DNA of 64,000 nucleotides from Candidatus Hermodarchaeota archaeon (lineage in GTDB: Archaea; Asgardarchaeota; Lokiarchaeia; Sigyniarchaeales; SOKP01). The stretch is from positions 64,001-128,000 of the forward strand of contig JBHLLP010000002.1 in assembly GCA_048885525.1 (NCBI GenBank), given 5' to 3'. The notes below the pieces were generated by a model. The model was not told the origin of the DNA. It did no database searches and worked only from the letters and a program-made list of their open reading frames with translations. Positions 7,210 to 59,173 of this stretch are shown piece after piece (positions within the stretch are counted from its first letter, which is position 1; each line of letters opens with the position of its first letter). A program made the translations under genes and the position numbers.

Positions 7210-8718
7210 TCATGAAGTTCTTTTCATATTTTTTTCTTTTTTAGAAGATCTTTTCGACTGCCACGGATAAGTTGATAAAGCAGCTATTATAGGTTCTTTA
7301 GATTTTCTTATCCGGAATAAAAATGTCATTGATTTTCTTATTTCTAATAAAAATTCATTTCTAATAATTTTATTATTGACTTCTCCTTTTTCTTTTACTA
7401 ATGCTAATCTATGTAGGGCAAATATACCTAATATAAGTGCGATTATAAAGAAAAAATCCATTCCTTGTAAATTTAATATTTGGATTGATCCACTATTATT
7501 TGGAGAGTTCCAATTAAGCGTCCAATAAAATTCAGAAAGTTCAAAATAATTAGCACATAAACCACCGATTATGGGAGCAATTCCTAGGGGAATAGAAGTG
7601 AATAAAGTCGTAACCGCAAGATACCAATTAGCTTTTCCTTTTGGAGCTAATTTTAAACTAATATTACTTAATGCGAGGGTAGTTCCTGCTAATGAAATTC
7701 CAGTAAAAATATGGATCAAAATCAATAGTGGCATTGTGAACCAGTAAAATCCCGGTAATGATGTAAAAACCCAAGCTAGTATACAAAAAAGAAATAAAGG
7801 ACAAGAGACATTTAATACAGATTTATTACTAAATCTATCAGAAAGATGACCCCATAATTGTAAGAAAATAAGATTTACAATTTGACTTATCGCTATGAGA
7901 CAGATTACTAATGTTAAGCTTAAATGTAATTTTTCAAGCATATAAACAGTAAAGAATGGTACCGTAAATCCAATGGTAAAATACCACAGAAATAAAAACT
8001 TTAGTAAATTTTTATAATTTTTGTCTCTATAAGGTTCAGAAATTAATTGGGGGAGTTTTGGTTTCATTTCCAGCATTATCATTGTAGGTTCTGAAATTTT
8101 TGATATATAATAGACACTAATCATTCCAAAAGCAAATCCTAAAAAATAAAGAATTGAATAACCTAAATCTTGAATATGTGTGAAACTAAATCTCCATATA
8201 TCTATAAATATTCCAGCAAATAAAGTAGTTATTAATCCCATAACTGTGGATAATAATATCCTTCTTGAATAGAATTTTCCAAGTATTTTTTGTGGTATGA
8301 GATCATGCATCCAAAAATTCCAAGCGGTATGACCAATTGAAGCGAAAATGGATTGCAATGTTAAAAAAAGTACTAAAAAAATTAAACTTAATTCAAATGT
8401 GAAAAGAAAAGGAATTAATCCTATAGCTAATATACATAATCTATACAAAATTAGACTATAGACTGTAATCACACGCCTATTACGTAATTTTTCGATAATA
8501 AAAATAGTTGGAATCTGAAAAAAATTACATAATGTTGGAATCGCTCCCAAGAGTCCTATTATAAGCAAGTTTGCCCCAAACCTTAAAGCAAAAGAAATTA
8601 AAATTGGACCAGCAGTTAGATTCACCATAATCTGAGAGATATATCCATCTTTAGTCACATTTTTTAGAGAAATTTCAATGTCATTTTCATTTAGAGTTTC
8701 TTGAGTTGGAAATATCAT
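7210..8718 (-). CDS. MFS transporter
   Basis: About 12 TM segments; WGHLSDRFSNK motif A in the second half; GKFYSRR. Confidence 0.85.
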   Translation of the reverse strand: MIFPTQETLNENDIEISLKNVTKDGYISQIMVNLTAGPILISFALRFGANLLIIGLLGAIPTLCNFFQIPTIFIIEKLRNRRVITVYSLILYRLCILAIGLIPFLFTFELSLIFLVLFLTLQSIFASIGHTAWNFWMHDLIPQKILGKFYSRRILLSTVMGLITTLFAGIFIDIWRFSFTHIQDLGYSILYFLGFAFGMISVYYISKISEPTMIMLEMKPKLPQLISEPYRDKNYKNLLKFLFLWYFTIGFTVPFFTVYMLEKLHLSLTLVICLIAISQIVNLIFLQLWGHLSDRFSNKSVLNVSCPLFLFCILAWVFTSLPGFYWFTMPLLILIHIFTGISLAGTTLALSNISLKLAPKGKANWYLAVTTLFTSIPLGIAPIIGGLCANYFELSEFYWTLNWNSPNNSGSIQILNLQGMDFFFIIALILGIFALHRLALVKEKGEVNNKIIRNEFLLEIRKSMTFLFRIRKSKEPIIAALSTYPWQSKRSSKKEKNMKRTS

Positions 8719-8778
8719 AGTATAAATTTCTACAGGTATTTTTAGAAGGTTAGATCTATTATAATTATAAATGGTTAA

Positions 8779-9882
8779 TTAATTGATGGGAATTTTTTCT
8801 TTTGCTCCAAACTCCATTAACTCTTCAGTAATAATTCGTTTTTTAATAAAATCTTTTAAATCTAATCCAATTATTGTTCTTCCATCATTTCTAAAATTTT
8901 TTCCACATAATATGGATGAAAGATTAATTACAGAATCTATAATTGGTGTTTTAACACCTAAAAACTTAGCTAAAGATGAAATTGGGACCAAACCAGTTGG
9001 TATATCCTCTGTGAAATATCTTGTAATTAATTGCTTTGGCGAGTTTATATTTTTATAAGCATCTATATTTTGAATTGCGTCATATATGCATTTTTTTTTA
9101 ACACCATAGGATTTATGTGCCCAATTGCAAAATCTGATATGATTAAATCCTAAGATTTCAAAAATTTTATTCATTTCAATTTGAATATTTTCAAGGACCT
9201 CACAAATTCGAGTAGTTGCCCCCTCAGCATAAAATTTGAAACTTATTCCAGAATCCATGATACCTGCATTTAAAAGTGAAATTGTTGGATGCAATAACAT
9301 TCCAATATTAGTTAATGTCATTTCAAGATAATCTCTTACTGGATTTAACTGAGGAAATATATCTTTTAGTGTATCATACACAAAAAAAGTGTGTTTTTCC
9401 GGAAAAGCGGCAAAGTCGACAGAATCTTTGATCTTAAGAATTTTTACTCCATTCTTTTTTAGTTGCCTTGAAGTAAAAATCAGTGTTTGAGCTTCAGCAA
9501 TAAAAATGGGAAAAGAAATACCTTTCTTTTCAACTGTTCGTCTAAATTCAACGGCACCAAATGTTCTTCCAGGATTTAATATTATAATTTGATCTGGAGA
9601 GAGAAATTTTATAATTTTTTCAGCAATATCTCTATGTGCTGACGCAGGGATCACTATTAATATGATATCAACATCTCTTAATGCTAATTCTAAATTTTGT
9701 GTAGCTAAGTTAATTGGAAAAAAACCTTTTATTGCTCCAGATGCTTTTATTCCTCCTTTCTTTTTTATATCTACAATTCTTGAAAGTGAACGATTATATA
9801 GATTTACAGAATGTCCTTTCGAAGATAAATATGCTCCAAACGCACGACCACCGTTTCCAGCCCCTACAACACAAAACTTCAC
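8779..9882 (-). CDS. NAD(P)-dependent opine (octopine/nopaline) dehydrogenase family protein
   Basis: GAGNGG Rossmann motif, LNPGRTFGA, NIGMLLHP, FYAEG, RYFTEDIPTGLVP; GTG start overlaps the upstream stop. Confidence 0.9.
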   Translation of the reverse strand: MKFCVVGAGNGGRAFGAYLSSKGHSVNLYNRSLSRIVDIKKKGGIKASGAIKGFFPINLATQNLELALRDVDIILIVIPASAHRDIAEKIIKFLSPDQIIILNPGRTFGAVEFRRTVEKKGISFPIFIAEAQTLIFTSRQLKKNGVKILKIKDSVDFAAFPEKHTFFVYDTLKDIFPQLNPVRDYLEMTLTNIGMLLHPTISLLNAGIMDSGISFKFYAEGATTRICEVLENIQIEMNKIFEILGFNHIRFCNWAHKSYGVKKKCIYDAIQNIDAYKNINSPKQLITRYFTEDIPTGLVPISSLAKFLGVKTPIIDSVINLSSILCGKNFRNDGRTIIGLDLKDFIKKRIITEELMEFGAKEKIPIN

Positions 9883-11627
9883 TTATCAATCACCTTAAAA
9901 ATAGATTTTTCTTTTTGAATTATCAAATTAGATGACTTTAAATCGGGAAGATTAGATGTAATGTCTTTAATTCTCTGTAATTCATCATATTTTTGTTGTC
10001 TCAAGTCATCCCACGAGTAGCATGCACCATTAATAATTTTTGTTTTAATTTTACCCATTGCAAATTTATTGTTTTTTAAATGTGGAGCATCAAAAATCCC
10101 ATATTTTACAAGACGGTTCAAAACATTGGGATTAACATATGGATCTTTTAGTTCTTTCTCATCCTTAGTCAAACATGGGATTAAATTTATTATCCATTTT
10201 GCTTGTTTAATTAATTGTTCTTTTCTTTTTTGTATTTTATTATCAATCAAGTTTAATTTGCTTGAATATATTCTATTTATAACTTGATCTATTATTTTAC
10301 AACTTTCAATTACGTCTTCTGGAAGAGCAGCATGCTGAGCTTCTGAATAACTAACTACATGAATTATATCTGGTTTTATTGCTAATTGAATCATTGTAGT
10401 AGCTGCTAATTGCCCCTTTGCTTTATCTAAATCCAATGGGAAACTGGCTAATCCTGTTCTTACTTGTTTAATTACTGAAAATTCTTTATCTACTAGAGTC
10501 TGTAATAATTCATTATTTGCTAGAATTTTGGCTAAATCCATATCAAGTGAACTTGAAGGTGGTGTATTAAACATATTTTGTGCGATGAAATGTTTTACAC
10601 CTAGCTTTTTAGCTATTATCCCGCATAAATACATATCTGCCACAGATATAACATCTGGAGCGTCTCTTAAACTCCAATGGTGAGAATCGTTAATCTCGAC
10701 AGGAATATTATTGTCACCATGCCATTTAATAGCTTCTAAGTGTTGAATTATTGATTCTTTTAATGTTAAAGGCCCTCTCCCATCCATTTGATTAAACCAA
10801 AAAATTGGGATAGCTGCCCAAGCATTATTAATAGTTTCTCTATATAGTTTCGCTAACTTTATAAAATCACGAGTTCCTGAATAGATTCGTAAAAGAGGAT
10901 AATTTCCTGTTAATCTTGCTCTATGTAAATTTAAAAAGTCTTCCTTAGTTCTAATTGGTACTCCTCCTGCGCCAGATAAATGTTTAACTTGATCCTTAGG
11001 ATGGAAATAATTAGCTTGAGTATTCTGATCTGGAGCGATTGAAATTATATCTAAAACCTCTGCATCTGCAATCTTTTTTATCCCTTTTATGGTTTCTTTC
11101 ATACTTGGTAATCCAAAATGAGCTCTTATTATAGGAAAGGGCTTTTTCCATTTTATACGAGAAATTAATTCCTTAGGGATCTCTACTTCTTCTCCAGAAA
11201 CAGCTAATTCATTTCTTAAAATAGAAATTATTTTATATTTTGACTCTCCACCTATAAAAAATTCATGAAAAATACCAAAATCTTTAGCAATTCTAACTAC
11301 TTCAGGAGTCCCAGCAAAAAATAGTTGTTTAGGTTTGTATTCCGACTTTTCATATTTTTTTTTAAAATTTTGAAGAATTGGTATAACAGTAGAGGGTGTT
11401 AGCCGGTAGCTAAGCCCTAAAATATCTGGTTTCACTCGTTTAATTTTATCAATAATCACAGAATTTGGAACTGCAGGTCCTAAAAAGAAGCATTCAAACC
11501 CCAATTGGGTTGCAATGTTCATAAAATTATAAGATCCTGCTACATGAACGCATTGACCAATACATGCCGTTAAAATCTTTTTGGTTTTTAGCCTTTTGAT
11601 ATTATTATTATTATCTTTCATTATCAT
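9879..11627 (-). CDS. Cobalamin-dependent enzyme: B12-binding domain fused to a glutamate mutase epsilon-like TIM barrel
   Basis: CVHVAG (DxHxxG variant), LGLSYRL, FFAG; barrel motifs RAHFGLP, DQNTQAN, YSGTRD, FPLDLDKAKG, SEA; GGAGG SD at 11636-11640. Confidence 0.8.
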   Translation of the reverse strand: MIMKDNNNNIKRLKTKKILTACIGQCVHVAGSYNFMNIATQLGFECFFLGPAVPNSVIIDKIKRVKPDILGLSYRLTPSTVIPILQNFKKKYEKSEYKPKQLFFAGTPEVVRIAKDFGIFHEFFIGGESKYKIISILRNELAVSGEEVEIPKELISRIKWKKPFPIIRAHFGLPSMKETIKGIKKIADAEVLDIISIAPDQNTQANYFHPKDQVKHLSGAGGVPIRTKEDFLNLHRARLTGNYPLLRIYSGTRDFIKLAKLYRETINNAWAAIPIFWFNQMDGRGPLTLKESIIQHLEAIKWHGDNNIPVEINDSHHWSLRDAPDVISVADMYLCGIIAKKLGVKHFIAQNMFNTPPSSSLDMDLAKILANNELLQTLVDKEFSVIKQVRTGLASFPLDLDKAKGQLAATTMIQLAIKPDIIHVVSYSEAQHAALPEDVIESCKIIDQVINRIYSSKLNLIDNKIQKRKEQLIKQAKWIINLIPCLTKDEKELKDPYVNPNVLNRLVKYGIFDAPHLKNNKFAMGKIKTKIINGACYSWDDLRQQKYDELQRIKDITSNLPDLKSSNLIIQKEKSIFKVIDK

Positions 11628-11665
11628 AAAATTTCCTCCTTATCGGAGTTTTTATAGTAATTATA

Positions 11666-11729
11666 ATTCTTAATCATTCATAAGACAGACTTTGGGGTAT
11701 TCCCTGAGCCAAATGATGAAAATTAGAAA
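11666..11729 (-). promoter_or_regulatory. Candidate structured 5' leader element of the B12 enzyme operon
   Basis: GC-richer island able to fold into a long imperfect hairpin (GGG-AATA-CCC cap, GGCT/AGTC, TCAT/ATGA, TTCT/AGAA) about 25 nt upstream of the SD. Confidence 0.35.
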
Positions 11730-11975
11730 TAGATATATTTACTAATTTTTGATTGGTTATACAATTAACCATAGTAAACACTATATTATTATAGCAATGT
11801 TTGATATTTAAATATAGTGATTATTTAAATAGATATAAATTTACTTTTTAATTAAATAAATAACCTTTTAAGTAAAAGTATTTGTCTATAAGAGAAGTAA
11901 ATTTATATACTTTTATATATAATATCTATATATAAAAAGAAATTTTTTTATAATATAATCTATTGGTGAAGTGAA

Positions 11976-12200
11976 ATTTCTTCTAGCCAATCACAAAGAA
12001 AATCTACCTTAGAAATAGTAGAAAATATTTATAATGCCTTAGATGATGGGAAATTTCATACAATAAGCGAAATTTCTGAAAAGGCAAAGTCGAACTGGAT
12101 TACAGTAAAAAATCAAGTAGAACTTATTAAAAAAATTCAAGATTTACCTAAAATTGATATAATTCATGCCTCAAAGCAGATATTAGTGAGAAAAGTATAA
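11976..12200 (+). CDS. Small winged-helix/HTH DNA-binding protein (74 aa, ATT start; absent from the ORF track)
   Basis: Hand translation (M)SSSQSQRKSTLEIVENIYNALDDGKFHTISEISEKAKSNWITVKNQVELIKKIQ...; HTH pattern TISEIS..A...W.TV; GGTGA SD at 11965-11969. Confidence 0.7.
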   Translation: MSSSQSQRKSTLEIVENIYNALDDGKFHTISEISEKAKSNWITVKNQVELIKKIQDLPKIDIIHASKQILVRKV

Positions 12201-12312
12201 TTTAGAAAGGATATAAACTTGTATTGTAAGCAGTATCAGAAAAAAATTGTATCTTATACTTACTTTAATGTTAATAAACAAATATTACCCTATTTATCAG
12301 AAATATGAGATA

Positions 12313-12360
12313 AATTATTGTTGAGAAAATTTTTAGTCAATAATTACTGTTGAGAAAATT
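12313..12360. repeat. 19-bp direct repeat (AATTAYTGTTGAGAAAATT x2, 29-bp period)
   Basis: Copies at 12313-12331 and 12342-12360 with one mismatch. Confidence 0.75.
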
Positions 12361-12545
12361 AAAAAAGACAAAAAAGAAGAAGCCTAAGTAAAGAAGCTTA
12401 TAGTATTTACAGATAATTACAAATTGTAAAAATTTAAAGGCTCAAATAGAATTTCTGACTAAATCAATAAATCTTCCTAGGAAATATGATATCTCTATAG
12501 AAGGTTTTTTTTAAAAAATCTAAAAAAAAAATATTAAAAATTAAT

Positions 12546-13460
12546 ATGATTGAAAATAAAAATAATAAATCGGCTGAGTCAAATAATAAAGAAAAGTGTT
12601 GTAGAAATCCAAATATTAATATTAGAAATGGGGCAAAGGTATGTTTAAATTGTGGTATGGTAATAGGCGTTGTATTACTACAGAAAGAAAGAAGAGCTTT
12701 CACTTTAGATGAAAGAAGAAAAAGAAAGCGAACTGAAAAAAGGTGGAGAGCTTATGGTCCCAGGACCATTCTTTCAAATGAAATTATAGACAGTAAAGGT
12801 AAAATCATTGATGCTAAAAAAAGATTAAAAATTAAACGTTTATCAAAAATACAAAGATCTTTAACTACAGGAATAGAGAGAAATTTATGGGAAGCTGAGC
12901 CAAAAATGTCATATCTGGTTTCTAAATTAAATATTCCTGATTATGTTTTTAAAACGGCCTGGACAATTTATAAATCTGCTGCGGAAAAGAAATTAACAAT
13001 GGGTAGATCGATTAAAGGATTTATAGCTGCTTCTTTATATGTTGCAATACGAACTTATGAAATTCCTCGGTTATTAGAAGAAATAACTGACGCTCTCTTT
13101 ATCTCTCGAAGAACTGTCATTCGTTCTTTAGGAATATTATTTAGAGAAATATTACCAGATCTTAATCTTAAATATAAACCAATTACACCAGAACAATTAG
13201 TATTTAAATTTGGAAATGAGTTAAAAATACCTATCAAAATACAAAAAAAAGCAGTTAATTTACTAAGATATTCGTCTAATAGAGGGCTTTCTACTAATGG
13301 AAAAGATCCAAAAGGATTTGCAGCTTCAGCTATTTATATGGCGGCAAAATCTACTGATCATCGTAAAACTCAGAGTCAAGTTTCAGATACAGCAAAAATC
13401 ACAGAAGTAACTTTAAGAACTAGAATAAAAGAAATTAAAGAATTATCCCGTTTAAATTAA
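12546..13460 (+). CDS. tfb: Transcription initiation factor IIB
   Basis: N-terminal zinc ribbon (CC...CLNCG), GRSI..FIAASLY, GKDPKGFAASAIY, ITEVTLRTR HTH. Confidence 0.93.
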   Translation: MIENKNNKSAESNNKEKCCRNPNINIRNGAKVCLNCGMVIGVVLLQKERRAFTLDERRKRKRTEKRWRAYGPRTILSNEIIDSKGKIIDAKKRLKIKRLSKIQRSLTTGIERNLWEAEPKMSYLVSKLNIPDYVFKTAWTIYKSAAEKKLTMGRSIKGFIAASLYVAIRTYEIPRLLEEITDALFISRRTVIRSLGILFREILPDLNLKYKPITPEQLVFKFGNELKIPIKIQKKAVNLLRYSSNRGLSTNGKDPKGFAASAIYMAAKSTDHRKTQSQVSDTAKITEVTLRTRIKEIKELSRLN

Positions 13461-13470
13461 GAGTGTATTC

Positions 13471-15525
13471 ATGAATTCGAAAGGGTTATTTTTAGTAAGT
13501 CCTAACATAGGACATCCCAAAATATTGAATATTGATAGTAAATTAACTAAAAAAGACTTTAAAACAGATTTATTAATCATATCTAATATAAAGAATCCAA
13601 AAAAAGTAAAAGAATTCTTAACAGATAATATTAAATTAATACCTATTTTTGACTATAAGTGGAAATTAGAACAACTTCTAAAAAAAAGAGGTTTAAGAAA
13701 AAAAATCAAACGATTATGGAGAAAAATAAAAGCTTTTTTCTCATTTAGAAAAAAGGAAAAACATTTTGAAAGTTCAATAGAAGAATTAGACAAGTTTGGA
13801 GAAAAACAAAAAAGAACAGTAAAAATAAAAAAGAAGGATATAAAGAAAATAAAGCCTCGCGCTTTTAGGGGAATCCCAATAATTACTAAAATCATAAATA
13901 TAATATCAACAACCTCAATAAAGATCAATAACTCAAAATATATTGATGATCAATATTGTAGACCTCAGAATTATTTAAGAAAATTAGACGTTTTTGATAA
14001 TTTGGATTATTTCTTTAAAATTACTTTAGAATTTAAAATAACTGATGAGATTTTAAAATTTTTGTCAACCAAAAAGTTCGTAATGTTTGACATTTTAGTT
14101 GAAGATATAAATTTGGACAAAGAAATAAATTATCACGCTATTGTAATTTCAAAAAACGATTGGACAAATATCAATATCATACAAGCAACTGATTTACATA
14201 TAGCTAAAAGAAATGATGAAATATTTGATAAAATAAATAAAATGTATCGAAATCTTAGAAGTAAAAATATTAAAAAAATAAATCAAATAGAAACTAATCA
14301 ACTAAACTCAAAAGATAAAGGTGATATTAGAAAATCTCTTTTTAAAATTGATCTCTCATTTAAAAAGAGACTGATTAATCCAAACAATCTTTTTAGAAAA
14401 TTTATTGAGATTGTAAATAAGAAAGTAACCAAAAATGAAATTGACTTTATAATTATTACAGGAGATATTGTAGATTTTACTAATATTAGTAAAACACCAG
14501 AAAATAAAAATAAAATTTTTAGGTATAAAAAGAGTAATTGGAAAGTCTTCAAAATAATTGTCTTGAATATAAATCAGACTAATACTAAGGGTGTTAAAAG
14601 ATCAACGGAAATATTATGTCCAATCTTTACCATTCCCGGCAATCATGATTATCGCCCTTGGCAGTATGATTTAAATTGGGGAGGAATTTATAAAAAAATA
14701 GGGCTTAAAAAAATTGAAGCTCAAGCATTAAAAGATGAATATTCAGCTTCTCCAATCAAAGCTATTTTAAAAAGTGAAAATGCATTAAAAGGATATTTGT
14801 CCGAAATAAATGCTTCACTAAATTACTATTTAAAATTAGAAAATTCTGTGTTTATTTTTTTAAATACTGGGGCGGATTCCTATAAAAAAATAACAGATTT
14901 TATATCAGGAAGCCCTTCTCTAACAGGTCTTACTCACAGGCAAATAGAATTTTTAAATAATATTATTGAATATAAGCACAATAAAAAATCTCAAATTTTT
15001 CTTTGTTTGCATGCACCTCCTATAAATACAAGAGAGAAACGAGGTATATTAAGCCGAATAAAGAAAAAATTTAAAAAAATGATGAGAATACATTTAGATC
15101 AGTTCAAAGAATCTAAATTTGCAAGTCTAAAAAGGAAAAGAGAAAAAGCCAGAATTGATAATAAATTTAATATAACATATGGAACGATTTCTTCTAATTG
15201 GGAGAAATTGATTGATTTTTGTATCAAATATTGTATTCTAACTATCTCAGGTCATACACACATGTTAAATGAATATAGATTGAAAAAATCTTTACAAAAT
15301 AGCTCTAATGATAAGGAAGTGAAAAATTCATCTTTTTCAGTATTTTATGATGATTATTCTGAGATTTGTAAAAACATAAAGGATATTCAAAAATATAGTC
15401 CCTTTATAGTTCAAACTCCTGCGCTAGGATTAAAATCCTTTAAAAGACTTAAGAAAGCAGGAGCATATCGAGAAATAATAATAAAAAATGGAAAATTAGA
15501 TTCATTTCAAGTTAAATATCTATAA
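13471..15525 (+). CDS. Calcineurin-like metallophosphoesterase with a long basic N-terminal region
   Basis: TDLH, ITGDIVD, PGNHD, CLHAPP, SGHTH. Confidence 0.85.
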   Translation: MNSKGLFLVSPNIGHPKILNIDSKLTKKDFKTDLLIISNIKNPKKVKEFLTDNIKLIPIFDYKWKLEQLLKKRGLRKKIKRLWRKIKAFFSFRKKEKHFESSIEELDKFGEKQKRTVKIKKKDIKKIKPRAFRGIPIITKIINIISTTSIKINNSKYIDDQYCRPQNYLRKLDVFDNLDYFFKITLEFKITDEILKFLSTKKFVMFDILVEDINLDKEINYHAIVISKNDWTNINIIQATDLHIAKRNDEIFDKINKMYRNLRSKNIKKINQIETNQLNSKDKGDIRKSLFKIDLSFKKRLINPNNLFRKFIEIVNKKVTKNEIDFIIITGDIVDFTNISKTPENKNKIFRYKKSNWKVFKIIVLNINQTNTKGVKRSTEILCPIFTIPGNHDYRPWQYDLNWGGIYKKIGLKKIEAQALKDEYSASPIKAILKSENALKGYLSEINASLNYYLKLENSVFIFLNTGADSYKKITDFISGSPSLTGLTHRQIEFLNNIIEYKHNKKSQIFLCLHAPPINTREKRGILSRIKKKFKKMMRIHLDQFKESKFASLKRKREKARIDNKFNITYGTISSNWEKLIDFCIKYCILTISGHTHMLNEYRLKKSLQNSSNDKEVKNSSFSVFYDDYSEICKNIKDIQKYSPFIVQTPALGLKSFKRLKKAGAYREIIIKNGKLDSFQVKYL

Positions 15526-55379: not shown

Positions 55380-56639
55380 ATGAAAATTAGCAAAAGGGTT
55401 ATTATAGCTTTAATTACAGTATTTGGAGTTGCTGGTGCTAGTATTAGTACTTATTTTATTGTTATTTACATTGGTTCTACTGGTAATGGTTCCAATGGTA
55501 ATGGTTCTGAAGAAAAATCTATTGATGTAAAGATTCAAGAGCTTATGGCAGAATATGAAATTCCATCATTAGCAGCAGCTATTGTTATCAATAATAGCAT
55601 AGCGTGGGCTAATGGTTTTGGCGACCAATCAGCTCTAGATACAGTGTATATGATTGGTTCAATTACAAAAACATTTACTGCAACTGCACTACTTCAACTT
55701 AAAGAGAATAATCTTCTTAATTTAGATGATGATATTAATGATTATATTCCCTTTAATGTAAAACACCCAAATTACTCAAGTACGCCAATAACACCACGCA
55801 TGCTTTTAACACATAAAGCTGGCTTACCAACAAACCTCTATTGGTCACTTGAGTATTACTTTGATAACCAGACAATTGATTGGATAAATAATAATTTAGG
55901 ATGGGATATCATTAAATGGGCACATCGCCCAACTTTAGAGGAGTTCTTAAATGGTAGCTTAAATCCTTCTGGCTCCTATTATAATGATTATAATTGGCAA
56001 ACACAACCAGGAACAGAATTTCAATACTCTAATGCAGGTTTTCAATTATTAGGGTATTTGGTTGAAGAAATTACAAATCAATCTTTAGAGATGTACATTC
56101 AAGAAAATATTTTTGATCCATTAAATATGACTGAAAGCGGTTATTTCTATGCAGATTTTGTAGGAAAGCATGCTATTCCATATGAATGGCGATTAGGTAA
56201 CAATTTCGAATTACCTTTATACAATATCAATGTTACGGGAGCAGGATCGATAAGAAGCAATGTTTTGGACATGGCAAAATATATGAACGCTTTTATGAAC
56301 GAAGGGGAGGCGAATGGAACTCAGATACTAAGTCCTGCTAGTGTTAACTTAATGCATTCTATCCAACACCCACTTACTGGTACTACAGTAGAAGGTTTTA
56401 CATTTGAAGGTTATGGACTAGGGTGGAACATCTATGAAAGTAATTTTGTAGGGCATGGTGGAGCAACCCCTGGTTTCAGTTCTAATATGTTTCTTAAAAT
56501 TACTAACAATGGTTCTTTTGGTGTTATTTTGATGTTTAATCGTGGTTCCGCCCTTTTATATGATAGCCTTCTAATTACAGATTTTATACCCCAAATTAAC
56601 AATTTACTTTTAGAAGAAGCAGAAAATTTGTTCTACTAA
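55380..56639 (+). CDS. Membrane-anchored serine hydrolase (beta-lactamase/AmpC family)
   Basis: N-terminal TM, SITK (SxxK), LLTHKAG, YSN, GHGG; many N-x-S/T sequons. Confidence 0.9.
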   Translation: MKISKRVIIALITVFGVAGASISTYFIVIYIGSTGNGSNGNGSEEKSIDVKIQELMAEYEIPSLAAAIVINNSIAWANGFGDQSALDTVYMIGSITKTFTATALLQLKENNLLNLDDDINDYIPFNVKHPNYSSTPITPRMLLTHKAGLPTNLYWSLEYYFDNQTIDWINNNLGWDIIKWAHRPTLEEFLNGSLNPSGSYYNDYNWQTQPGTEFQYSNAGFQLLGYLVEEITNQSLEMYIQENIFDPLNMTESGYFYADFVGKHAIPYEWRLGNNFELPLYNINVTGAGSIRSNVLDMAKYMNAFMNEGEANGTQILSPASVNLMHSIQHPLTGTTVEGFTFEGYGLGWNIYESNFVGHGGATPGFSSNMFLKITNNGSFGVILMFNRGSALLYDSLLITDFIPQINNLLLEEAENLFY

Positions 56640-56766: not shown

Positions 56767-58329
56767 TTATTTTTTTTCCTCGAGTTTTTTAATTAGTCCA
56801 AATTTTATTATAATTGCAGAACTTATAACAATGATAATAAAGATGATCCAAATTGCTTCATAAGTCCAAATGTTCGTATACCATAGAGGTTTTGTTAAAT
56901 TATTGAATTTATAAGGAGAATTTGTCTTTACCCATTTAACGCCTAGACACCATAATTGAGAATATCTTTCTTTTGCTTCTATTGTATATACAATTGTTGG
57001 TATATTTGATTCAAATAAAGCTTGGTATCCTTTATTTGAATATTTATCACCAGTATTAATATAAGAAAAATTATAAGGAGAAGATTCAAAATCGTTTAGG
57101 GAGGGAGAACCACGCATTCCTAATAAAATCTCTGCTGCACGATTATTTATCATTTCAATCCATTCAATGTCACTGGTTGGAATCATAATTTTATCCAAAT
57201 TAACACCAGAATCAATAGTCATATTTAGGAGAATTTCATAAAAGTCATCATAGAAGGGATGACCTGAGTCTGGTCTATAAGGATCAAAATCTAGATAAAG
57301 ATCATTATCACGTGTAAAGTTAAGAACTTGTTCAAAAGTAGGTATTTTTATTCCTCTATATGATTCTGCTTGTGATTTTGATATAATTCCTTTTGAAATA
57401 GTATCAAAAGGATCCTTTTTTATAAACCAAGAACCAGCATCTAATTCTTGGAGTTCTGAAAAAGTAAAACTCTCTGCTTTGTCATTTTTTCTATTAGGAA
57501 AATGATCTGAAATATTAGTTGTTCTCAGTAATAGATCGTCATGCATTAAAAAGGGAACTCCATCAAAACTAATCCGAATATCAACTTCCCAACCCACCAC
57601 CAAATCATAATCAAGCACCGCAATACCTGACTCGATTGTGTTTTCTGGAGCAAGAGAAGAAGCTCCTCTATGTGCTATTAGATCTGGTTTAGAAGGTAAT
57701 TCTCCGTAGATAACAGTTGTAGGTATATATAATATGGGAAAAATATAAGCAAAGAGGTATAAAGAAATAAGGCAAGAAAAAATGAATTTTGATTTCTTAT
57801 TTGGATCAATAAATTTTTCAGAAAGGTAATTTTTAATTTTTGGAAAAATCTTGATTATTGGATATAGTGTTATAATAAGAAGGATATCAAGGAGAAAAAA
57901 GAAAAAGATACTATAAAAATCCAAAACATATAGGATTTTTTTATATTCACCAAACATATCAAGAAAGTATAATATCACAATAAATAAAAGAGTGTAAAAA
58001 ACAATTAGAACAATTGGTAATATTCTATTTAATTTATGAGGGGAAATTTCATCCCTTTTTGTAAATCGCTTAATATTAATGAAACTTAGTGCCAAACCAT
58101 ATGGTAAAGGTAATATTAGAACTATTCTTACTAAAAGAATAATATCAAAATCAAATCCTACCCAACTTGATACCTCTGAATTAATTTCATACCAATAGGG
58201 ATCAAGAGCATAAATTAACTCTGTAAATATTATTAAAATAACACATAAAATGACGTAAAGGACAATCCAGCGCTTCCCTTTTTTTCTTTGTAATTTATCT
58301 AATAATAACATAATATTTTTAAATAACAA
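56767..58329 (-). CDS. Six-TM glycerophosphodiester phosphodiesterase (GDE2/GDE3-like architecture)
   Basis: IAHRGAS..APENT, EVD, DGVPFLMHD, RTTN; five N-terminal and one C-terminal TM; start may be ATG 58311. Confidence 0.88.
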   Translation of the reverse strand: MLFKNIMLLLDKLQRKKGKRWIVLYVILCVILIIFTELIYALDPYWYEINSEVSSWVGFDFDIILLVRIVLILPLPYGLALSFINIKRFTKRDEISPHKLNRILPIVLIVFYTLLFIVILYFLDMFGEYKKILYVLDFYSIFFFFLLDILLIITLYPIIKIFPKIKNYLSEKFIDPNKKSKFIFSCLISLYLFAYIFPILYIPTTVIYGELPSKPDLIAHRGASSLAPENTIESGIAVLDYDLVVGWEVDIRISFDGVPFLMHDDLLLRTTNISDHFPNRKNDKAESFTFSELQELDAGSWFIKKDPFDTISKGIISKSQAESYRGIKIPTFEQVLNFTRDNDLYLDFDPYRPDSGHPFYDDFYEILLNMTIDSGVNLDKIMIPTSDIEWIEMINNRAAEILLGMRGSPSLNDFESSPYNFSYINTGDKYSNKGYQALFESNIPTIVYTIEAKERYSQLWCLGVKWVKTNSPYKFNNLTKPLWYTNIWTYEAIWIIFIIIVISSAIIIKFGLIKKLEEKK

Positions 58330-58384: not shown

Positions 58385-59173
58385 TTAATTAGATGGTTCA
58401 GAAATAAATTTGGTTTCTATTGGAGGACGAGGTGGTGCTCGGTAATATATTACTGATGGATATCCCATAATCATAATACCGAATATTTCATCATTTATAC
58501 CAAATAAATTTCTAGCTATTTCTTTGTTTTCATTAAGAAATATCTGAACGCCTCCAATCCAACAAGAACCTAAACCTAATGTTTCAGCACCTAACATTGC
58601 ATAGGTTATTGCTATAACGGCATTCTTACTATCCCAATCATTTTTCGAATGGAGAATCATTATGTGAGGAGCCTTATAAAAAAATGGATCAATGTTTTCT
58701 TTTCTTTTTTTCTTATACTCTCCTCTCTCTTCTTCTGATTCTATTGCATCGATAATTGAATCTATTAAATCATTAATCTTTGTTTCATCTGAAATTACGA
58801 GGCATTTTAAAGTTCGTTTATTCATAGCTATAGGAGCATATCTTATACAATCAATAACTTTTTCAATTATATCTCTTGGAACTTTTTTATTTTGATAATG
58901 CCTAATTGACCTTTTAGAACGAATTAATCTATATATTGCTTCATACGATATTAATTCACTCGGTTCTTCAAATTCTAAAGTAGTATCGTTCATATTTTCA
59001 TAAATTATAGCATTTTCAGGACATACTGCAATACAATGCCCACACAATATGCATCTTCGGGAGTTATTGAAATTTATTTCATTGTTAGGACTATTATAGT
59101 TATCCATTGGACACTCTTTGATGCATTCTTTACACAGATTGCATCTATCAACATTTATTCCTTTAATTGGCAT
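58385..59173 (-). CDS. Nitroreductase with an N-terminal 2x[4Fe-4S] ferredoxin domain
   Basis: CNLCKECIKECP, CILCGHCIAVCP, KRSIRHY, LGLGSCWIG, MGYP. Confidence 0.92.
   Translation of the reverse strand: MPIKGINVDRCNLCKECIKECPMDNYNSPNNEINFNNSRRCILCGHCIAVCPENAIIYENMNDTTLEFEEPSELISYEAIYRLIRSKRSIRHYQNKKVPRDIIEKVIDCIRYAPIAMNKRTLKCLVISDETKINDLIDSIIDAIESEEERGEYKKKRKENIDPFFYKAPHIMILHSKNDWDSKNAVIAITYAMLGAETLGLGSCWIGGVQIFLNENKEIARNLFGINDEIFGIMIMGYPSVIYYRAPPRPPIETKFISEPSN

Follow-up and report, generated by a model that had tools for sequence, protein, structure and literature searches.

The protein encoded on the reverse strand at positions 56767-58329 of the window, by which we mean the whole 64,000-nucleotide stretch of a Candidatus Hermodarchaeota archaeon genome that was analysed, is a true member of the family of six-transmembrane (TM) phosphodiesterases represented in animals by GDE2 (GDPD5), GDE3 (GDPD2) and GDE6 (GDPD4), a placement on which five independent lines of evidence agree. 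The open reading frame (ORF) is intact and exists as first described in an earlier note on this DNA, which had proposed an archaeal relative of the animal enzymes. Its product is probably a catalytically competent, outward-facing, metal-dependent phosphodiesterase, and it may act on a lipid head group at the outer surface of the membrane. Database records call such proteins 'glycerophosphodiester phosphodiesterase family protein', and for some of them IMG gives 'glycerophosphoinositol inositolphosphodiesterase', which is also the NCBI name of bird GDPD2; our literature search found no paper linking Asgard archaea, or archaea in general, with GDE2/3/6, nor one discussing the origin of GDE2/3/6. 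The connection is implicit in automatic annotation and undiscussed in the literature, and the window protein is an archaeal member of a known family.

Five TM helices in the N-terminal part of the protein are followed by a GDPD domain and a last TM helix near the C-terminus. A Kyte-Doolittle hydropathy profile gives exactly six hydrophobic segments (approximately residues 21-40, 63-83, 101-122, 132-158, 181-203 and 492-513), and an AlphaFold2 (AF2) model built with 102 homologs as input (pLDDT 94.8, pTM 0.92) has long helices at residues 19-41, 63-91, 99-125, 129-168, 176-200 and 487-519 around an alpha/beta barrel spanning residues 216-469. The 5+1 layout that the earlier note had read from the sequence, and that defines the family (PMC7033719, PMC5576486), is thus present in both the hydropathy profile and the model. 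Pfam identifies GDPD (PF03009) at residues 220-472 with E 1.8e-19, and a Foldseek search retrieves B. subtilis GlpQ (5t9b) and T. tengcongensis GDPD (2pz0) at E ~1e-14. Lysine and arginine residues number 7 in the N-terminal tail, 0, 6, 2 and 8 in the four successive loops that join helices 1 to 5, and 4 in the C-terminal tail, a distribution from which the positive-inside rule predicts that both tails lie inside and the GDPD domain outside. Because the identical protein on record (P0002) is 514 residues long, the true start is probably the ATG at codon 7 (nucleotide 58311) of the TTG-initiated frame; residue numbers for domains and motifs count from the TTG, that is, in the 520-residue frame. 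The parts of the gene are as follows.

56767-58329, reverse strand: whole ORF, TTG start, 520 codons plus stop
56767-58311, reverse strand: probable real coding sequence from the ATG at codon 7, 514 residues
58270-58329, reverse strand: basic N-terminal tail, residues 1-20, with 7 K/R, predicted to be cytoplasmic (hydropathy; AF2 helix 2-15)
57721-58269, reverse strand: five-helix TM bundle, residues 21-203, homologous to the animal GDE2/3/6 bundle (hydropathy, AF2, hhalign)
56872-57720, reverse strand: GDPD catalytic domain, residues 204-486, TIM-barrel fold, predicted to face outward (Pfam, Foldseek, loop charges)
56791-56871, reverse strand: sixth TM helix, residues 487-513, with the family-specific P481...Y490...W494 just ahead (hydropathy, AF2)
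56767-56790, reverse strand: basic C-terminal tail of seven residues plus stop; the long regulatory tail of animal GDE2 is absent (sequence)

An exhaustive phmmer search over 1.84 billion representative sequences aligned the window protein over its full length with proteins that their sources name GDPD5, GDPD2 or GDPD4 (E 6e-44 to 8e-31), from a crinoid, a nemertean, an annelid, Priapulus, a starfish, Xenopus, a bichir and birds, although identity to the animal enzymes is only 23-29%. Reciprocal BLAST searches started from the animal proteins returned Asgard proteins across nearly the full length, as when residues 43-516 of a bird GDPD2 aligned with residues 15-491 of an Asgard protein (221 bits). 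The resemblance holds for the membrane part taken on its own, in that TM-only profiles of the Asgard and animal proteins, from which the GDPD domain had been removed, were matched by hhalign at 97.2% (E 3.9e-11) over 171 collinear columns with all five helices in order. A chordate 'GP-PDE' cluster in the ESM Atlas superposes on the AF2 model with a TM-score of 0.82 over 492 residues, whereas Bacillota GDPDs of the GPDPase_memb type reach only 0.52; with this low score, and with no PF10110 match at E <= 0.1, the interpretation of the protein as an ordinary bacterial membrane GDPD (PF10110) was rejected. Sequence and Foldseek searches of the PDB found no six-TM relative, every match being to the GDPD domain. 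Helices 1 to 5, the GDPD TIM barrel and helix 6 are conserved together as a single unit, and this unit shows homology to the animal enzymes from end to end.

The GDPD domain was placed in a rooted tree of 91 sequences and 279 columns (IQ-TREE, LG+C20+F+G4 with posterior mean site frequencies, PMSF), with E. coli UgpQ and GlpQ, the soluble paralogs from the window's own genome and the nearest soluble GDPDs as outgroups; the bootstrap was incompletely converged, so that support values are rough. All six-TM proteins, including the named GDPD2, GDPD4 and GDPD5, form one clade (100/100) on a branch of 0.72, outside which UgpQ, GlpQ and the soluble paralogs of the same genome are placed, and a quick tree with Shimodaira-Hasegawa-like (SH-aLRT) support agrees on this clade. 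The domain falls outside the ordinary bacterial and soluble GDPDs, and this tree, the homologous TM bundles and the fold match to the chordate cluster together bear out the likeness to GDE2/3/6 that the earlier note had proposed. FastTree gave one discordant placement, with short soluble GDPDs as a clade within the Asgard group; it was discarded, as site-heterogeneous trees moved that clade outside the six-TM forms.

All of the motifs that the earlier note had quoted as marks of the subfamily are found in the window protein, but they are of two kinds. About half are generic, since UgpQ, S. aureus GlpQ (2oog) and the nearest soluble GDPDs likewise contain HRG, DG.P..HD, RTTN and AGSWF, whereas the SxLWCxGV, HP and P...Y...W segments are specific to the family. 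The features limited to six-TM proteins are H357-P, S457 and W460 in the SxLWCxGV segment, P481-x8-Y490-x3-W494, the prolines at 198, 203 and 212, and Asp in place of Glu at D349, the third metal ligand, a position occupied by Asp in 67 of the 69 proteins with six TM helices and by Glu in 16 of the 18 soluble GDPDs. Among them D349, W460, S457, P481, Y490, W494 and P198/203/212 are common to all six-TM groups and largely missing from soluble GDPDs, and it is the junction between the TM bundle and the barrel that carries P198, P203, P481, Y490, W494 and W460.

The closest matches come from metagenome-assembled genomes of Promethearchaeota (Lokiarchaeota), at 68-80% identity; further relatives of ~500 residues are labelled Helarchaeota, Hermodarchaeota, Thorarchaeota and Heimdallarchaeota, and the cultured Promethearchaeum syntrophicum MK-D1 has a homolog (L041/P0121). 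In all, 70 of 400 genomes of the same GTDB phylum match at E <= 1e-10, under Loki, Thor, Hel, Hermod and Heimdall labels, and the gene is old in the Asgard phylum yet accessory and patchy. Some relatives in the same family carry six-TM GDPD genes as a tandem pair (G268:C42:26525-29714 and G255:C45:3-3031). Full-length copies also stand on two contigs labelled as bacterial, L020 (DATKTW010000045.1, 'Candidatus Nanopelagicaceae bacterium') at 56% identity and L030 ('Deferrimicrobium sp.') at 38%; the former probably comes from an Asgard genome and was mislabelled or misbinned, because its flanking GH4 and DEAD-box helicase genes are shared with the Loki loci L022 and L035.

Outside the archaea, full-length six-TM copies were found in 3 of 401 sampled Chloroflexota genomes. 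The bacterial protein P0151 is 87% identical to the product of a gene on a 744-kb Anaerolineaceae contig, and P0186/P0282 is encoded on a gene-dense contig, adjoining a D-Ala-D-Ala ligase gene. Labelled eukaryotic carriers, in a list with no systematic survey of eukaryotes behind it, are Metazoa (including tunicates), the ichthyosporean Chromosphaera perkinsii and Mastigamoeba balamuthi only, and a search with a profile of non-animal eukaryote-like sequences did not widen this range, most of its matches being Mastigamoeba paralogs and short GDPDs. Mastigamoeba has at least five six-TM paralogs (P0237, P0131, P0184, P0309 and P0312), and the gene model of one of them (P0237, 1122 residues) includes a fused Pumilio RNA-binding region, possibly an artefact of the model. 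An ENA metagenome contig (L010) carries at 8001-13692 an intron-free GDPD5-like gene beside genes for C2orf69 and for Glyco_transf_22, which we take to be the PIG-B/ALG9 family. With its sparse genes and these neighbors the contig was considered as a possible protist; the nearest named relative of its product (P0195) is a Ciona GDPD5-like protein, at 47%, and it is probably tunicate.

Given that the family is present in all three domains of life, we considered the routes that could have brought it to eukaryotes. In the rooted PMSF tree eukaryotes and bacteria group together (99/90), and the Asgard sequences branch at the base, as a grade or as a sister clade (58/96). At positions 247, 347 and 455 the Asgard proteins retain states like those of soluble GDPDs, and the eukaryotic and bacterial proteins have derived states in common, among them I, L or M at 347 and the loss of R455. 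These shared states, the 99/90 grouping, the restriction of labelled eukaryotes to Metazoa, Chromosphaera and Mastigamoeba and the patchy spread within Asgard archaea would all fit a history in which eukaryotes, or Amorphea alone, obtained the family from bacteria, or in which Asgard archaea and bacteria exchanged it, so that the likeness between Asgard and animal proteins would go back to horizontal transfer. We regard such a history as a credible possibility, though we would not adopt it as the expected one. The bacterial form is rare, at 3 of 401 Chloroflexota, compared with 70 of 400 Asgard genomes from several classes with proteins at 30-40% identity; it is the Asgard sequences that keep the ancestral, soluble-like states and sit basally; and a tree with an Asgard-eukaryote clade is not rejected. 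Constraining that clade costs 17.4 log-likelihood units under PMSF and 14.8 under LG+F+G4, and an approximately unbiased (AU) test of the same two trees under LG+F+G4 gives p 0.187.

The data are compatible with an Asgard origin of the family, and inheritance by eukaryotes from Asgard archaea is unproven because, although the Asgard-eukaryote tree is not rejected, eukaryotes group with bacteria. A fuller scenario, in which the family originated in Asgard archaea and was inherited vertically by the eukaryotic stem, bacteria received their rare copies through later transfers, and an outward enzyme that clipped inositol-phospholipid-linked surface molecules was the precursor of GPI (glycosylphosphatidylinositol) shedding and signalling, would make GDE2/3/6 a eukaryotic signature protein that had gone unrecognised; this we consider unlikely as a whole. 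The suggestion of such a signature protein, also made in the earlier note, is not established: the family is commoner in Asgard archaea than in Chloroflexota, but bacteria share the architecture and group with eukaryotes, and the labelled eukaryotic range is narrow.

To relate the sequence to the chemistry of the GDPD superfamily, the catalytic columns were aligned with those of E. coli UgpQ, in which we take E39 and D41 to be metal ligands on the basis of the GDPD literature. The principal motifs, each identified by alignment, are listed here.

57664-57672, reverse strand: HRG motif, with H220 (first catalytic His, UgpQ H12 column) and R221
57580-57588, reverse strand: E248-x-D250, the columns of UgpQ E39/D41
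57541-57543, reverse strand: H263, second catalytic His, UgpQ H54 column
57283-57285, reverse strand: D349, third metal ligand column, UgpQ E114

All catalytic columns are kept, namely H220/R221, E229/N230, E248/D250, H263/D264, R269 and D349, corresponding to H12/R13, E21/N22, E39/D41, H54/D55, R60 and E114 of UgpQ, and because of this we expect the window protein to be an active metal-dependent phosphodiesterase with a two-histidine acid/base pair. Substitution of the catalytic His of the GDPD domain abolishes the activity of GDE2 (H233A) and GDE3 (H229A) (PMC7033719, PMC5576486); these positions are taken from the papers, and the human proteins themselves are not part of the alignment that assigns H220.

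If the enzyme follows the mechanism of the GDPD/PI-PLC superfamily (the latter being the phosphatidylinositol-specific phospholipases C), a divalent cation held by E248, D250 and D349 would, with the phosphate-binding R221, position the phosphodiester, H220 and H263 would serve as general base and acid, and cleavage could be of the phospholipase C (PLC) or phospholipase D (PLD) type. The substrate would be a phosphodiester head group offered at the outer membrane surface, a proposal we make because conservation across three domains of life extends to the bundle and to the contacts at its junction with the barrel; a freely diffusing diester would be less likely. Archaetidylinositol or glycosylated forms of it, or another lipid-linked glycerol- or inositol-phosphate, would be the most plausible candidates. 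Intact diether lipids have no free glycerol hydroxyl, so that a cyclic-phosphate route would need the 2-OH of inositol, and this favors inositol-phosphate head groups. Archaetidylinositol is common among archaea (PMC9385802). The genome of the window encodes myo-inositol-1-phosphate synthase, three CDP-alcohol transferases and four PIG-L-family deacetylases; we counted the inositol-phosphate synthesis genes and the CDP-alcohol transferases in favor of a lipid head group, and the synthase, being near-universal (374 of 400 Asgard genomes), leaves its phyletic profile uninformative.

A serious rival to the head-group proposal, albeit one to which we give rather limited credence, is nutrient scavenging, in which the protein would be a membrane-tethered equivalent of GlpQ that hydrolyzes soluble glycerophosphodiesters from decaying sediment lipids for uptake by a transporter. 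The genome of this Lokiarchaeon encodes eight further soluble GDPD paralogs of ~245-268 residues, an unusual expansion that suggests heavy diester catabolism, four of them in tandem, and GDE2 itself frees choline from glycerophosphocholine in vitro (PMC7033719). The paralogs lie at the following positions of that genome (G000).

C38:229-2878: four soluble GDPD genes, head-to-tail
C16:10786-11481: soluble GDPD gene
C14:4678-5349: soluble GDPD gene
C7:75724-76392: soluble GDPD gene
C22:28011-28676: soluble GDPD gene

In two Heimdallarchaeota-labelled loci (L042:3061-4587 and L043:5086-6516) the next gene downstream of the six-TM GDPD, on the same strand, encodes an MFS_2 transporter (PF13347, E 2.7e-59), and such a gene lies within 2-4 kb in three more (L022, L035 and L038), which gives a weak hint that cleavage is coupled to uptake of the product. 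This link, however, is confined to 5 of the 33 loci and absent from the 64-kb window, and tethering would take no more than one anchor helix, whereas what has been kept across three domains of life is a bundle of five helices with its junction residues.

Returning to the proposal of a head-group phosphodiesterase of the GDE2/3/6 family, several observations weigh against it or against parts of it. Most GDPDs have a Lys after the third metal ligand (K116 of UgpQ); the window protein and its closest relative have Tyr there, and R352 may or may not stand in for the Lys. No conserved operon hinting at a substrate was found when the 33 loci were clustered, synteny extending within the genus only, and just 7 of 53 genomes of the protein's own genus carry the gene, which marks it as accessory. 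PIG-M, GT22 (PIG-B/Z), PigN and GWT1 were not found in the 99.3%-complete genome, a soft negative in that the control genomes gave none either. The last point also bears on the idea that the protein is strictly a sheddase of surface proteins held by GPI-like lipid anchors, which we judge very unlikely: animal members do cleave GPI anchors (PMC5576486, PMC7033719), and the genome has, beside its inositol-phosphate synthesis and PIG-L-family genes, one Peptidase_C13 match (legumain/GPI-transamidase, GPI8 family; G000:C6:51495-52127 in a 506-residue ORF, E 4.7e-11, above the Pfam cut-off), a family that the same search detected in only 1 of 14 control prokaryotes, but neither PIG-L nor C13 is specific to GPI synthesis.

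The genes flanking the six-TM GDPD gene in the window encode a nitroreductase fused to a ferredoxin (58385-59173, reverse strand) and a serine hydrolase of the beta-lactamase family (55380-56639, forward strand). Neither has an evident functional tie to it, and the flanks are kept only in close relatives.

Work on GDE2, GDE3 and GDE6 has dealt with their roles in animals, where they regulate neuronal differentiation, the survival of motor neurons and the behavior of cancer cells. The present data make this 'animal' family of membrane phosphodiesterases an old one that is common in Asgard archaea and found in a few bacteria too, and they add a further case for or against the Asgard ancestry of a eukaryotic membrane-signalling component. 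The compact, tail-less Asgard homologs are tractable targets for the structure and mechanism of the whole six-helix enzyme, and they provide a concrete, testable candidate for the processing of surface lipids or lipid anchors in the closest archaeal relatives of eukaryotes.

Among known systems, the window protein can be compared with the Bacillota GPDPase_memb GDPDs (PF10110 plus PF03009), which are also polytopic proteins with a GDPD domain but whose membrane domain is unrelated and whose parts come in another order. Soluble and periplasmic GDPDs (UgpQ, E. coli GlpQ, B. subtilis GlpQ 5t9b and 2pz0) share the TIM barrel and the catalytic residues, but they lack the TM bundle and W460, P481, Y490 and W494, have Glu at the third metal ligand and fall outside the six-TM clade. 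The bacterial six-TM GDPDs of Anaerolineaceae, other Chloroflexota and metagenomic bacteria have the same architecture (P0151, E 1.5e-57) and belong to the 100/100 clade; they are rare, some have long acidic C-terminal tails, and it is with the eukaryotes, not the Asgard archaea, that they group. With respect to the animal enzymes, the window protein has tiny tails (20 and 7 residues) in place of the Cys-rich N-tail and the long trafficking C-tail (PMC7033719), the Asgard but not the animal proteins retain the soluble-GDPD-like residues at 247, 347 and 455, and the Asgard host, unlike the animal setting, has a membrane of ether lipids and, as far as the soft negative above goes, a genome in which canonical GPI-pathway families were not found. 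Despite these differences, animal GDE2, GDE3 and GDE6 have in common with it the five TM helices, the GDPD ectodomain and the final TM helix with both tails predicted inside, collinear full-length homology that includes the TM bundle, the same whole-protein fold, an identical set of catalytic His, Arg, Glu and Asp residues in which the third metal site is Asp, and a place in one fully supported clade.

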